From an uncultured archaeon (GTDB lineage Archaea; Asgardarchaeota; Thorarchaeia; Thorarchaeales; CAZPUN01), in assembly GCA_964589775.1 (NCBI GenBank), contig CAZPUN010000047.1:1-25921 (forward strand): 25,921 nt of DNA. The letters are read 5' to 3'. How positions within the stretch are numbered: position 1 is the first letter of the stretch; each line of letters opens with the position of its first letter. Under the pieces are notes generated by a model that saw nothing but the letters and a program-made list of their open reading frames with translations, was not told the origin of the DNA and made no database searches. The position numbers were made by a program, and so were the translations under genes. Below are positions 1,802 through 16,307 of the stretch, piece by piece.

Positions 1802-1894
1802 TGCAAATTCCTCCAAATATACAATAATAATTAGTCATAAAAAGTCGTTTCGCTCTTATAAATAATTTCAATGCATTAAATATACGATGGTTCT

Positions 1895-1979
1895 TTGAAT
1901 GCTCGGGGGCGAAAAGGAGTACGGAGGAGGTAGGAGAGGTTTTAAAAGGAGGAGTAAAACATCAACCCCGAGCATTCAA
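1895..1979 (-). ncRNA. Candidate small RNA A: 14-bp terminal stem enclosing a C/U-rich loop with six CUCC (anti-SD) motifs
   Basis: Perfect inverted repeat TTGAATGCTCGGGG (1895-1908) / CCCCGAGCATTCAA (1966-1979). GGAG on the + strand at 1916, 1923, 1926, 1933, 1948 and 1951. TTTATATA on the - strand at 2006-1999. GC-rich island in AT-rich intergenic DNA. Confidence 0.6.
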
Positions 1980-1998
1980 CATTAACTTTTCTAAGAAC

Positions 1999-2006
1999 TA
2001 TATAAA
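1999..2006 (-). promoter_or_regulatory. Putative TATA box for candidate sRNA A
   Basis: TTTATATA on the minus strand, 21 nt upstream of G1977 in the 5' stem arm. No good BRE, and the box could also be read on the + strand. Confidence 0.45.
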
Positions 2007-2114
2007 GAATAGTGTATATGCAATCAATTTTTTCAAATAATCACACCATAATGAGAAAATAAACTAAGAATAACAAAATAACAAAATTAAACTTCAATAA
2101 GGCGCCCGAATACT

Positions 2115-2125
2115 AAAAAAGAGAT
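2115..2125 (-). terminator. Putative oligo-T terminator downstream of sRNA B
   Basis: TCTCTTTTTT on the minus strand, about 30 nt past the 3' stem arm. Confidence 0.35.
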
Positions 2126-2150
2126 AATTATTCAAAAGGAGAACAAGGAC

Positions 2151-2257
2151 GCCGGAAAGGGGCAAAAAATAGACGAGAGGTTTCGAGTGCGAGGAAGGAG
2201 AGAGTGTTTGGAGGAGACGAATTAAGGAGGAGAGAGAATACAGGCCCCTTTTCCAGC
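2151..2257 (-). ncRNA. Candidate small RNA B: 13-bp terminal stem enclosing a C/U-rich loop with five CUCC motifs; may extend to the U-tract near 2115
   Basis: Minus-strand arms GCUGGAAAAGGGGC (2257-2244) and GCCCCUUUCCGGC (2163-2151) pair with one bulged A and one U-G wobble. The wobble would be a C-A mismatch on the + strand. TTTATATA at 2287-2280. Confidence 0.6.
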
Positions 2258-2279
2258 ATATAATTCATTGTTACATAGA

Positions 2280-2295
2280 TATATAAATTCTTTGA
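2280..2295 (-). promoter_or_regulatory. Putative BRE-TATA promoter for candidate sRNA B
   Basis: Minus strand reads TCAAAGAA-TTTATATA. The box ends 22 nt upstream of G2257, the first base of the stem, which is normal archaeal spacing. Confidence 0.55.
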
Positions 2296-2446
2296 TAAAA
2301 CCATCCGCAAATTGCAATTTTTATAAAAAATTAATTTAAAATTATAAAAAATAAAAAAATATAACTAAATTTTATATAAACATTATCTGACAAAGGGGAA
2401 CAAATATATAGAAAAATAATTTAAAAACTGATGAGGGATAAGGAAA

Positions 2447-3520
2447 ATGCAACAGGATACAAATTTAGACAGTAATCTCACAGGGAATTGGAAAGAAATG
2501 CACGAACAAATTTTTGCATTTCCAGATCTATTAAGCGCCTCATTAGAAAAATACAATGAATCGCCATGGACTTTAAAGGACTATGAAGGAATAGCTTTTG
2601 CGGGAATGGGAGGAAGCTCAATAGGTTCAATGATTACAAAAGATATTTATGATTTGAATAGCAAAATACCGCTTATCATAATTCAGAATTTTAATCTTCC
2701 AAGATGGATAACACGCAATTGGTTATTGATAGGTACATCATTCTCTGGGAATACATATGAGACAAACAACGTCGTTAGGGCGGCAATAGAAAGAGGGATA
2801 GATGTAAAAATAATATCATCCGGAGGAAAATTGCTAGAACTCGCAAATAGACACAATCTGGATTTTTTCAAGTTAGACAAGACTATACAAAAGAATAATA
2901 TACAAATACAATTACAGCCCCGCGCTGCATTACCCATGTCAATTGCGCCAATTTTGAAGTTTCTCAGCGAAATTGAGTCAATTAATTTTAATGCGGAACA
3001 AATATACCGTGAATTGGATTCCGATCGTCACTTGTGGAATGAGGAAAACAATACTGAAGACAATTATGCAAAAAGGTTTGCAAAAATCATTTTTACACAA
3101 ATACCGATCTTTCTGGGATATGATGCAACAGCCTCTGTAGCATATCGTGCAAAATGTCAAATTAATGAGAATGCAAAATATATTGCATACAATAATGTGT
3201 TTCCAGAATTTGTCCATAATGAAATAGAAAGTTTTGGCTTTGATGAAGTAAACAAAAGGATCCTTGCGATAATATTGAGTAGTAAGTATTCAACAGTAAA
3301 GAATAAGAGACTTGTCGATGTTACTAAGGGAATATTACAGGAAAAAATAAACGTATTCGAATATACTAATGATAAACCAGATATATTTTCAGAAATTTTC
3401 AGTATGATAATGTTTTGGGACTTTGTGAGCTTATATCTGTCAATTTTAAATCAAAAAGACCCGGTCACAGTAAACAATATAAAGGTTCTAAAAAGAAATT
3501 TGAAAAAAATATTAGAATGA
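2447..3520 (+). CDS. Bifunctional phosphoglucose/phosphomannose isomerase (PGI/PMI, SIS domain)
   Basis: GMGGSSIG, SFSGNTYET, QPRAAL, INENAK and PEFVHNEIE motifs. Confidence 0.92.
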   Translation: MQQDTNLDSNLTGNWKEMHEQIFAFPDLLSASLEKYNESPWTLKDYEGIAFAGMGGSSIGSMITKDIYDLNSKIPLIIIQNFNLPRWITRNWLLIGTSFSGNTYETNNVVRAAIERGIDVKIISSGGKLLELANRHNLDFFKLDKTIQKNNIQIQLQPRAALPMSIAPILKFLSEIESINFNAEQIYRELDSDRHLWNEENNTEDNYAKRFAKIIFTQIPIFLGYDATASVAYRAKCQINENAKYIAYNNVFPEFVHNEIESFGFDEVNKRILAIILSSKYSTVKNKRLVDVTKGILQEKINVFEYTNDKPDIFSEIFSMIMFWDFVSLYLSILNQKDPVTVNNIKVLKRNLKKILE

Positions 3521-4081: not shown

Positions 4082-4942
4082 CTACGTAATGATAAGAATA
4101 AGCCATACAATTATTGAAAGGGTTACAGGAATGGGCAATACCGGAACATATGTTTTTTCCTCTGACAAGAAGACTAAACTCAGCCGAAGACCAGCTAAAA
4201 GCAAGATAAAGACTAAAATCCATACAAATAAACCAAAAATTAGCATTGTATGACTAGATATTATAGAATAAACAATGAAGTCTCCAGCACCAATCAAAAA
4301 GTTATCATGGGCAAAACGAATATACGAATATGGATCGTATGAAGTGTTTTTCCTGTGGACATGGGGCTTTTTTGATATCATTAATAAATCTTCAAAAACT
4401 AACACCAATAAAATAAATACCATAGAGATCGTTGGAAGTGAAAGACCCAAGAATGTACCAAAAATAGAACTATAGCCGATTACAAATATATTTCTAAGAC
4501 TATTTGGCAGCATATCCGTTAGAATAAAGATAAATGAAAGTGCCGTAAGATATATTGATAGAAAGGCAATTATTAAATATAGAAACGGATTTGGCGTTGC
4601 GCCTTTGAATAAAATTAGTAGTAAAGTATTTCCAAAAAATACGGTTGTAATAAATATAATGGGAGACATTATCGCTGCAATTATTAAATGCTCAGATTTC
4701 TTATTCTTCAATAAAAAGAGATACATAAATAAAACTACAACGCCACTTAATATTATTGAATAAAGTGTCGTAATAATAAGCTCGGTAAGGCTCATATTAC
4801 TAGGAATTGCAGAAGGATGTTCAGGAACCAAATAGCTTCCAGAAGTGATGAAAACAAGCATTCCACTTATAATAATTGGAATTAGCGAAAATTTACTGAG
4901 CACTATGAAAATTTTATTTATATTAAAATCACTCATAATCAT
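4082..4942 (-). CDS. Presenilin/SPP-family (A22) GxGD intramembrane aspartyl protease
   Basis: Polytopic. First Asp in VLVFEDLL (YD equivalent), LIGAGDFIVYS (compare presenilin GLGDFIFYS) and YVPVLP (PAL equivalent), in the right order. Confidence 0.85.
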   Translation of the reverse strand: MIMSDFNINKIFIVLSKFSLIPIIISGMLVFITSGSYLVPEHPSAIPSNMSLTELIITTLYSIILSGVVVLFMYLFLLKNKKSEHLIIAAIMSPIIFITTVFFGNTLLLILFKGATPNPFLYLIIAFLSIYLTALSFIFILTDMLPNSLRNIFVIGYSSIFGTFLGLSLPTISMVFILLVLVFEDLLMISKKPHVHRKNTSYDPYSYIRFAHDNFLIGAGDFIVYSIISSHTMLIFGLFVWILVFILLLAGLRLSLVFLSEEKTYVPVLPIPVTLSIIVWLILIIT

Positions 4943-13427: not shown

Positions 13428-15011
13428 TTGGTTAAGACATATAATATCGAATATTTATACAGACAGATTAATCCTGGAGGAACTGAAGTTATCCCAGATG
13501 AACGAGCAATACAGGATGCTATCGCATTATTGCATATGAAATCTCGGAGACCTGCAGATGCAGTACTGGAAGTCTTTGCAAGGATTGCATTTCCATATTA
13601 CATAGTACAATGGAGTAGCAATGAATCCATATTAGTAAGTGGTTTTGATAAACACGTAGTTAGTTTTGAGATTCCAGTATATAAAGGGCTCCAAAATATT
13701 AAAAACACAATCGCTTCGATGAACCGTGATAATGTAATAGAAATTCTGAAACAGGTGAAAACTACCTTTGAAAAATCACAATCAGAAACAATTGAAATTA
13801 AAGGTCTTGTAATGCCAGACATCATTCCGAAAATGCGAGGTATCTTGAAGGAGTTAGAACCGGGAAAATTTGATAATGAAATAAAAATTAATTTCACATC
13901 AGATGCAGCTCTAGATACAAGTTCCAGTATGCAAAAGCTTGTAAAAGATTTGGAAACTCAATCAAAGAATATCGATGAATTAAATTCAATGCTAAAATCA
14001 AAAGTTGAAGATATTCTAAAAGTTGTAGATAATCTAATAAACACAGAAAAATCCAAAATGGGAAGACAAGCACAATCACTGGAAGAAACCATTGAGATGG
14101 AAATACAAAGATTAGAACAAAAAGCATCAGATCGAAAATATGAACTTAAAAATAAAAAGGAAGCCGAACTAAAGAAGTTGAATACGGAACTTGCCAAAGC
14201 GATATTTGAGCTAGAACAATTTTATACAAATATTGCAGATTTAGTAAGACAATACAGAGGCGAAATCACAGACCAAATGGACAATTTCAAAGCAGGAAAG
14301 AAAACATTTGAGAAAATGGTATCAGAAGTTACAGAGAAAGAAAAAGGATCCCAAGAGATAATTGAAAGACTTGAGAAATTTGTAAGAGAACTCTATGAAA
14401 AGAATGATAAAATTATCGAAGAGTATGAAGCGGAAATTTCACGAATTGACGAGGCATTGAAGGAACAAATCATACAACAGAAACACAGACGCGTTGAATA
14501 TGACTTGCAAGTCCAAGAAACTCTAAATAGATTACTAGATGAACGCGATGAAATTGCTAAGATTTTTGCGGAAACGACTGAAAATATACAAAATGCATAT
14601 AACAACATACGAAGCAAACTAACTGAAATATATGAATATTCTATCAATCAAAATGAATTTGGTATTACGGTACCAATTTCAAAGGTACAAATAATAACAT
14701 ATGGTGGAAAATATAAGAGCACAAATAAAATTGAACTTGCAACACCAGCGATCATTCCAGAACAAGTAAAACAACCGTTAAAACTAATAGATTTTGAAAA
14801 ATGTAAGTTAAAAGAAATGATTTCGGAATATCTAAATGACTCATCTTTGCGCAATATAATTGAGTCAGCAATGAAAAGCTACAATATGCTAAATGATGAT
14901 GGATTAAATAATATAAAAGAGGGAATTAAAGCTTTAGTCGCTAGAAGAACGATTGATAGCGACTTGGGAGATAGGTTGATTGAATTCTTTGAATCCTCAA
15001 AAACAACTTAA
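13428..15011 (+). CDS. Long coiled-coil protein of unknown function
   Basis: 527-aa ORF, TTG start after GAGGGG. E/K/Q-rich heptad region at about aa 165-405 between globular ends. No Walker A motif. Confidence 0.75.
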   Translation: MVKTYNIEYLYRQINPGGTEVIPDERAIQDAIALLHMKSRRPADAVLEVFARIAFPYYIVQWSSNESILVSGFDKHVVSFEIPVYKGLQNIKNTIASMNRDNVIEILKQVKTTFEKSQSETIEIKGLVMPDIIPKMRGILKELEPGKFDNEIKINFTSDAALDTSSSMQKLVKDLETQSKNIDELNSMLKSKVEDILKVVDNLINTEKSKMGRQAQSLEETIEMEIQRLEQKASDRKYELKNKKEAELKKLNTELAKAIFELEQFYTNIADLVRQYRGEITDQMDNFKAGKKTFEKMVSEVTEKEKGSQEIIERLEKFVRELYEKNDKIIEEYEAEISRIDEALKEQIIQQKHRRVEYDLQVQETLNRLLDERDEIAKIFAETTENIQNAYNNIRSKLTEIYEYSINQNEFGITVPISKVQIITYGGKYKSTNKIELATPAIIPEQVKQPLKLIDFEKCKLKEMISEYLNDSSLRNIIESAMKSYNMLNDDGLNNIKEGIKALVARRTIDSDLGDRLIEFFESSKTT

Positions 15012-15604
15012 CTTTCCTCTTTTTCTATTTTTAAATCATCAAATATAATTACGCTCCCCTTTAATTTTGAAGCTTCTTCAGGAGTTAAAACTTCATATTT
15101 CACTTTTGATAGATCATCAGGTAAAATAGAACTTATTCCGTTTGGGTCTTCCATAATTAATGTGAATTCCAATTTACCTTCAATTGCTTCATGGATCATT
15201 TTTAATACTGTTCTACCTCTCATAACCGCCTCATCAGTTTCTGCAAATTTTATTGCCATTTCAACAGCAGGCATAATTCTGTACAAAACGCCCTCAACAT
15301 TACTGATGAATGAATCTGCTGCAGGCCCGGGTTCAACCTTTATTCCAAACTCAGGGATTGTAAATGTTCCACTGCTGGAACGAATAACACGAATAGATAA
15401 ATCGGATATTGTTTTTACTTTTAACGTCCAACGTGCGGGAGGTTGCTGTTCAACTGCAAAAACATCATTATGTGAAAAGTGACACTTGGGGCACTCCATA
15501 TGAAACATAGCAATCTCATTAAAGAATGGTACACTGTATAATTGCTGTGTCATAATTATTGGTTTATAACCACATACAGGACATGAAACTTCACTGACTT
15601 TCAA
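15008..15604 (-). CDS. ZPR1 zinc-finger domain protein (archaeal single-module type)
   Basis: CPVCG...VPFFNEI...CPKCHF, RVIRSSSG, IEPGP-like VEPGP, SNVEGVL and DPNGIS motifs. TTG at 15604 follows GAGGGA, directly after the upstream stop. Confidence 0.9.
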   Translation of the reverse strand: MKVSEVSCPVCGYKPIIMTQQLYSVPFFNEIAMFHMECPKCHFSHNDVFAVEQQPPARWTLKVKTISDLSIRVIRSSSGTFTIPEFGIKVEPGPAADSFISNVEGVLYRIMPAVEMAIKFAETDEAVMRGRTVLKMIHEAIEGKLEFTLIMEDPNGISSILPDDLSKVKYEVLTPEEASKLKGSVIIFDDLKIEKEES

Positions 15605-15614
15605 AAGGATCCCT

Positions 15615-16307
15615 CTATAATTCAATTTCTGTAACAGTTTTTGTTGCGGGAAGCGCAACATTCCATATTGGAGTATTATTGATTTCAGCATAAAATACCT
15701 TTGACTCGTGCACATGCGCATGAATTACTGCATCAGGCTTTGCATGCACAATAGCTCGGTAAAATTTCTTACTACTAATCCATCGGTATATAGAAGGCTT
15801 AGCCCCAACACATGTCAAAGTTGTAGGTGCATAGTGCATTAGAAGAATTGTAAGGTCCGCTCCAACATGTTTCAAGCGTTTTAACATTTCTTCAACAACA
15901 ATAATTCGATTAGCATATAATTCTCGAATTGCAGGAACATTTCGCAATTGCCATGATGTGGGCTCATCTAAACTTCCTTGGGTCCCTACAATTCCGATCA
16001 CTTTACCATTAATATTTAAAGTTGTAGAAGTATCATCTAAAAATATAATATGCTCTCCGTATTGCTCAACAATTTTGGATCTAGATTCAAAATATTCTTC
16101 ATTTCCAAAGCAGGCTACAATAGGTGGAATTGTTCCGAATTCATTTTCGATTGCATTTAATACTTCCCCATAACCTTCAACACGCCCTTGAAGCACCATA
16201 TCACCCGCAAATAGAAACAGGTCGGGCAAGGGCTTATTTTTTAAGGATTCTATAAATAATTCCAAATATCTAGGGGAATGTACGTCACCTACCGCAAGGA
16301 CCTTCAT
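15615..16307 (-). CDS. Calcineurin-like metallophosphoesterase
   Basis: GDVH, AGD, FGNEE, MHYAP and HAHVH motifs. Start at ATG 16307 or TTG 16313. Confidence 0.88.
   Translation of the reverse strand: MKVLAVGDVHSPRYLELFIESLKNKPLPDLFLFAGDMVLQGRVEGYGEVLNAIENEFGTIPPIVACFGNEEYFESRSKIVEQYGEHIIFLDDTSTTLNINGKVIGIVGTQGSLDEPTSWQLRNVPAIRELYANRIIVVEEMLKRLKHVGADLTILLMHYAPTTLTCVGAKPSIYRWISSKKFYRAIVHAKPDAVIHAHVHESKVFYAEINNTPIWNVALPATKTVTEIEL

Follow-up and report, generated by a model that had tools for sequence, protein, structure and literature searches.

The window analysed here is a contig of 25,921 nucleotides from an archaeal genome (2.16 Mb, 35% GC, 96.75% complete) that originates from hydrothermal vent metagenomes, carries an actin gene and is, among the genomes compared, the sole representative of its own family, within the same order as the Thorarchaeaceae. 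The amino-acid composition suggests that the host is a moderate thermophile, with a rough growth estimate of about 60 °C. Two islands, designated E1 and E2, lie in AT-rich intergenic DNA between a small membrane protein gene and a phosphoglucose/phosphomannose isomerase gene (Table 1), and their GC content (45-51%, versus 17-29% around them) confirms what a previous sequence-only reading had pointed out. The conserved block adjoining them includes a presenilin-family protease gene (4082-4942), and a ZPR1-domain gene is found at 15008-15721. ARAGORN detected no tRNA in the region; elsewhere in the genome several tRNA genes display apparent long or multiple introns at unusual positions (for example C13:58586-58724, C13:62045-62173, C13:67527-67649 and C21:51745-51841).

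Table 1. Features of the E1/E2 locus and micro-ORFs of the host genome; positions refer to the window unless preceded by a contig label.
Feature	Position	Strand	Remarks
Two-helix membrane protein gene, 84 aa	1547..1801	-	Thorarchaeales-specific synteny anchor; in 75/86 Thorarchaeaceae genomes
GGAGG SD site of the membrane gene	1808-1816	-	
TATA-like box of the membrane gene	about 1855-1864	-	
E1, small RNA gene	1895..1979	-	Terminal stem and 57-nt C/U loop with 6 CUCC; predicted 5' end G1977
E1 promoter, predicted	1999..2022	-	TATA box 1999-2006; the block upstream of it (2007-2022) is conserved
E2 3' tail	2128..2150	-	Sixth CUCC, then U run; weak hairpin; 24/24 identical in the related species
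E2, small RNA gene	2151..2257	-	13-bp stem and 80-nt loop with 5 CUCC; predicted 5' end G2257
43-codon open frame through E2	2128..2259	-	ATG start here, TTG in the related species
E2 promoter, predicted	2280..2314	-	TATA box 2280-2287; the block upstream of it is conserved as far as about 2314
Phosphoglucose/phosphomannose isomerase gene	2447..3520	+	Opens the conserved block that flanks the cluster on its other side
Host micro-ORF	C45:13155	-	
Host micro-ORF	C17:7973	+	
Host micro-ORF	C21:89060	-	
Host micro-ORF	C25:3879	-	

The two minus-strand panhandles described from the sequence were recovered by folding and shuffling. The stem of E1 is a perfect helix of 14 bp (1895-1908/1966-1979) and that of E2 (2151-2163/2244-2257) contains a single bulged A, the corresponding fold z-scores on the minus strand being -5.25 for E1 and -2.8 for E2, or -3.4 when the tail of E2 is included. 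Counted with overlapping motifs, the CUCC content of the loops exceeds that of shuffled loops (means of 1.1 for E1 and 1.7 for E2; p = 5e-5 and 0.013), and at 65 °C the predicted probability that a loop motif is unpaired is 0.91-0.98. Of 16 CUCC clusters in the genome, E1 and E2 are the only two that are both intergenic and enclosed in a panhandle, and GC-rich stems of at least 12 bp occur four times in the real genome versus none in shuffled intergenic DNA. The stem sequences had been considered unrelated, and they do differ, but both share the G4/C4 inner core typical of the family described below. The possibility of circularisation, also raised previously, found no support, since a bulge-helix-bulge motif is missing at the ends of E1, only trivial slipped registers inside the helix were seen at E2, and the flanks are not conserved. 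A GC-rich heptamer located 3' of E2 (2101-2107), partly kept in a related species, is able to base-pair with the last part of the 3' arm (2147-2153) and may represent an alternative fold.

Both elements are preceded on the minus strand by the same TATA box, at a distance of 21 nt from G1977 and 22 nt from G2257, as had been noticed in the sequence-only reading. In a syntenic related species (GCA_053940065), 103 of 104 positions of E2 and 74 of 85 of E1 are identical, 12 of the 14 pairs of the E1 stem being kept, whereas the flanking genes reach only 61-71% DNA identity and the spacer between E1 and E2 54%. The conserved unit of E2 extends 24 nt beyond the stem, to 2128, and its tail is a probable termination region. 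The E1 promoter is kept at 12 of 15 positions and its TATA-to-stem spacer at 7 of 18, while the TATA box of E2 and its BRE side are identical (17/17) and seven changes fall within 2258-2279; this retention of the TATA boxes and their upstream side, with drift between TATA and stem, is the hallmark of promoters on the minus strand. The same pattern is seen in contigs from three additional runs, although these may be the same species. No strand was favoured by G-U asymmetry, and a sigma-70 promoter scan is unsuited to archaea. Conservation far above that of the neighbouring coding genes bears out the earlier proposal of selection on non-coding minus-strand RNA genes, and E1 and E2 are very probably functional RNA genes, for which we propose lengths of about 83 nt (E1) and 107-130 nt (E2).

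A BLAST search of the region against 40 relatives from the order gave no match because the sequences are too diverged, but position reveals a family. In the Thorarchaeaceae, a cluster of panhandles with C/U-rich loops is found upstream of the same small membrane gene; member C lies 80-130 nt away and member B 260-350 nt away, and in many cases a divergent member A is present as well. E1, at 89 nt from the membrane gene, occupies slot C and E2, at 344 nt, slot B, and of 51 Thorarchaeaceae loci about 46 have conserved panhandles with a CU loop in these slots; a third gene of the divergent A type was not found in the host genome. E2 shares 14 of the 15 bases of the B core, within its first motif, and it is the top hit in the host genome, by a small margin, for a matrix derived from Thorarchaeaceae alone. 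Homology scores by themselves are weak (with a profile HMM, E = 2.4-4.2 for E2 and no match for E1; with a covariance model, E = 0.27), and the case for orthology consequently depends on the combination of position, core and promoter. Assignment of E1 to family A, whose end bases are alike, was considered and rejected, given that position and promoter indicate slot C and the A model scored 15 bits. TATA-like boxes precede 20 of 28 B and 19 of 22 C members on the CU strand (39/50 pooled), versus 1 of 28 and 3 of 22 on the opposite strand (4/50).

Across the Thorarchaeaceae the stem sequences vary while pairing is retained. In family A, 97% of the cells are paired and five pairs are changed on both sides, a result obtained in none of 500 shuffles, and arms pair better with their own partner than across RNAs (about -27 versus -18 kcal/mol for A and -23 versus -16.5 kcal/mol for B; permutation p < 1e-5), some helix counts being partly so by construction. 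RNAalifold found no stem on two MAFFT alignments because the arms were out of register. The comparison with relatives advocated earlier thus yielded both conserved slots and stem covariation, the latter in a paralogous family. The B pattern occurs in 38 of 86 Thorarchaeaceae genomes (control 0) and the A model finds one copy in 27 of 86. No B pattern was found in 313 other Asgard genomes, Lokiarchaea included, although so strict a pattern can miss diverged members; a scan of metagenome contigs returned 47 matches, all unrelated, and a generic triple-CUCC pattern across the order retrieved mostly coding repeats, at control level. Loops of E1 and E2 carry 5-6 motifs, compared with 2-4 in most B members. 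The best reading of these data is that the CU-loop family reaches a second, deep-branching and thermophilic family of the order, with multivalent loops. The shared architecture had been ascribed to selection on structure rather than to duplication; selection is upheld, but the exclusion of duplication is doubtful, as the cluster looks like a set of old paralogues.

Two further features of the Thorarchaeaceae loci deserve mention. In one genus, a 31-nt hairpin interrupts the invariant core of the family A copies (L020:1018-1209, L021:1031-1220). Palindromes of 15 bp (TTGYGA-N3-TCRCAA), with a spacing like that of Lrp/AsnC-type operators, lie upstream of B and A promoters, full or half sites being present in 18 of 49 loci (among them L235, L243, L245, L256, L257, L259, L261, L262 and L273) against a single one in 78 kb of control sequence; none occurs in the window.

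The tail of the host 16S rRNA contains CCUCCUU, and the host employs Shine-Dalgarno (SD) sites of a GGAG/GAGG and a GGUG class, the former being complementary to the loops. Among 1790 genes, GAGG (417), GGAG (348) and GGUG (325) are strongly enriched at positions -16 to -4. Perfect 7-nt seeds for E1 are present in 12.7% of SD windows, versus 6.2% with dinucleotide-shuffled loops, and those for E2 in 14.9%, versus 9.7% (p < 0.01); in coding windows the figure is 3-4%. For seeds of 7 and 8 nt, SD windows were matched about twice as often as by shuffled loops and three to six times as often as control windows, an enrichment that follows almost automatically from the CUCC content. A G-rich 6-nt seed match is found in about 25% of genes, whereas GGUG-class sites and genes devoid of an SD do not match the loops, and the reach is therefore broad and class-selective but not global. 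Accordingly, from the earlier proposal of multivalent RBS-binding RNAs acting as global repressors, complementarity to SD sites in use is retained and the term global is not. Ranking by full duplex or whole-loop energy in the host genome performed no better than shuffled loops, so that no specific target stands out there. Seed enrichment in genes for secreted proteins is weak, and SD sites in general behave likewise. The SD site of the membrane gene itself finds a 9-nt perfect complement in the second motif of E2 (8 nt in the relative), with only a moderate energy rank. Taken as a whole, we consider it somewhat probable, at roughly 0.55, that E1 and E2 are trans-acting anti-SD small RNAs that pair with GGAG-class sites. 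In Lokiarchaea, SD sites have been reported to be rare (PMC12993045).

A candidate target emerged in the Thorarchaeaceae from sampling of starts preceded by a complement of the B core, which yielded a proline-rich micro-ORF ahead of an 82-residue orphan gene in four genomes of three genera. The orphan gene is present in 75 of 86 Thorarchaeaceae genomes, and the micro-ORFs comprise 11-16 codons and end in Pro-Trp/Phe (L326-L355). In 30 of 30 loci their RBS shows perfect complementarity to the B core along 7-14 nt, compared with 3 of 245 other starts having a complement of at least 8 nt; these loci are related by descent and not independent, and the counts hence overstate their independence. AGA follows GGAG in 18 of 28 micro-ORF sites versus 2 of 70 ordinary sites, an extension not accounted for by the 16S tail. 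Two genera additionally show a match of 12-13 bases between the micro-ORF site and their local C RNA. The micro-ORF RBS is thus a candidate for a conserved target of the B RNA in this family. The host genome harbours three identical copies of a 13-codon micro-ORF and one 11-codon relative, but the sites of these look-alikes are GGUGA, unmatched by E1 and E2, and homology between the host C45 orphan and the Thorarchaeaceae orphan is not significant (P = 0.11).

These observations also bear on other readings of the locus. The loops could act as decoys that capture a protein recognising single-stranded C/U-rich RNA or the 3' tail of 16S rRNA, such as Dim2/Pno1, a NusA-like protein, an Rrp4 KH protein or LSm rings, the last in line with the Sm/Lsm sponge suggested earlier, and so tune ribosome maturation, termination or RNA decay, which we judge unlikely. 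An open loop with short, repeated motifs is a usual trait of sponges, the host encodes Dim2-like, NusA-like and Rrp4 KH proteins and three LSm genes, and the loops of both RNAs share CCUCCUU with the tail of the host 16S rRNA. In addition, archaeal Dim2 binds the 16S 3' end, according to the citation of PMID 20363226 in PMC12127562. However, the GAUCA part of the tail is missing from both loops, the candidate proteins occur throughout the archaea, unlike the RNAs, which were found in a single order, and a decoy leaves unexplained the conserved complement of the micro-ORF site and the 99% conservation of the whole E2 loop. That conservation, near total and beyond the need of short seeds, would rather suit real RNA genes with another role, for example as guide or scaffold of an unknown ribonucleoprotein or as decoy that acts on rRNA precursors, with incidental SD complementarity; the outline reminiscent of Y and vault RNAs and the existence of further uncatalogued panhandle RNAs in the genome point the same way. 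Yet the invariant part is exactly the anti-SD-like core, no Ro60/TROVE gene (PF05731) was matched in the host genome (the control matched in two genomes), Rfam gave nothing for E1 and E2 at gathering score or at E 10, and the boxes of guide RNAs are absent, E1 having a C-box-like pentamer but no D box and neither stem being followed by ACA, which makes such a role rather improbable.

The open frame through E2 starts at the predicted start site and terminates where conservation ends, at 2128, and the single E2 substitution is synonymous, as expected if E2 served, additionally or even primarily, as a leaderless mRNA encoding a peptide of 43 residues. Nevertheless, 127 of 128 identical nucleotides is not a coding pattern at such divergence, the start becomes TTG in the relative, Thorarchaeaceae orthologues share neither frame nor start, and no comparable frame exists in E1; the base composition of C/U-rich strands in itself keeps them free of stops, and the frame is probably incidental, a coding function being very unlikely. 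Terminal inverted repeats and a GGA-rich plus strand would be compatible with DNA-level elements or plus-strand RNAs, either a MITE or sponges of the CsrA/RsmA type (CsrB/RsmZ). Both are largely refuted and retain hardly any likelihood: each element is present in a single copy at a position fixed across the order, in agreement with the sequence-only reading, which had argued against a MITE, the promoters lie on the CU strand, and no CsrA gene (PF02599) was matched, the control having matched in three genomes.

Other elements of this kind were observed in the genome. Intergenic panhandles at C26:21962-22048 (L276) and C21:157001-157087 (L277) have stems of 13 bp and about 14 bp and shared inner motifs; they are C-rich on one strand, the placement of TATA and T-tract favours the purine-rich strand, and Rfam gave no match. 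Terminal-stem elements occur at C34:10344-10487, C27:31556-31663, C15:8695-8851, C56:11707-11835, C20:56999-57099, C21:58839-58915 and C21:51971-52025, with no Rfam match at E 0.5; that of C34 contains two C-rich repeats, and a short CGCA repeat is common to C34 and C27. A region at C13:54305-54540 (L285:106-340) weakly matches the H/ACA RNA HgcG/Pab40 (23.8 bits, E 0.0013, below gathering), and a terminal-stem element with C- and D-box-like motifs at C57:32936-33002 is likely a C/D guide RNA.

Under the preferred reading of trans-acting anti-SD RNAs, E1 and E2 would be separately promoted members of a Thorarchaeales-specific family, in which the GC-rich terminal helix, as judged in silico, clamps and protects the ends and keeps the long C/U loop single-stranded. 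The CUCC motifs of the loop would then pair in trans with GGAG-type SD sites and block loading of the 30S subunit on a subset of mRNAs, and several motifs with different flanks may provide a wider target set or higher avidity. More speculatively, U-rich stretches beside the 3' arm may serve as a loading site for a chaperoning LSm/SmAP ring. In the Thorarchaeaceae the best candidate target would be the RBS of the proline-rich micro-ORF upstream of the orphan gene. A wider and more tentative hypothesis, with the odds against it, is an order-wide Asgard circuit in which clamp-and-loop RNAs mimicking the 16S tail gate the translation of proline-rich leader micro-ORFs and of further mRNAs with GGAG-type sites, aided by LSm chaperones, the loop having grown into a multivalent array in the thermophilic lineage. 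Neither Rfam nor the literature searched yielded a regulatory small RNA family from Asgard archaea. A conserved anti-SD family with a candidate target makes base-pairing translational control testable in the lineage closest to eukaryotes, and connects the CU-loop RNAs with the proline-rich micro-ORFs, both of them orphan features of Thorarchaeota.

The empty Rfam scan agrees with the earlier remark that no described archaeal RNA class was recognised in these elements. Y and vault RNAs, of about 80-150 nt, have a 5'/3' terminal helix, a large pyrimidine-rich loop and tandem gene clusters, all of which recall the helix, loop and tandem genes of E1 and E2; the Ro60-binding bulged-C helix of Y RNAs is nevertheless missing, and the major vault protein (PF01505) had no match in the host, nor did its control match in any genome. 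AbcR1/2, NfeR1, RsaE/RoxS and RNAIII are bacterial, hairpin-based and often Hfq-dependent. E1 and E2 resemble these RNAs of rhizobia (AbcR1/2, NfeR1) and Firmicutes (RsaE/RoxS, RNAIII) in the use of unpaired C-rich anti-SD motifs against many mRNAs (in part PMC4615179), but share no sequence or Rfam similarity with them. In Archaea, sRNA162 of Methanosarcina mazei is a trans-acting RNA in which a single-stranded region masks the RBS (PMC3510493), although it has one linker, a specific target, no panhandle and no repeated generic anti-SD motif, and belongs to an unrelated lineage. The parallel drawn earlier, with the cuckoo RNAs of Alphaproteobacteria (RSs0680/CcsR1-4, SmelC397), extends to clustering, variable stems around a constant C/U-rich anti-SD-like motif, several motifs per RNA and a conserved neighbourhood (PMC4615179). 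Cuckoo RNAs, however, consist of 2-4 adjacent hairpins, each with a loop of 9-27 nt containing CCUCCUCCC, and in Rhodobacter are cut from a shared transcript (PMC4615179), whereas E1 and E2 each have their own archaeal promoter, a single terminal helix and one loop of 57-80 nt in which CCUCCUCCC is absent and the motifs read CUCCUCC followed by U, G or A. The analogy with cuckoo and AbcR RNAs consequently holds for the way of working, if the model is right, but not for the definition of the cuckoo class, and one clamp around a long multivalent loop, distinct from the design of bacterial anti-SD RNAs, is probably a convergent solution.
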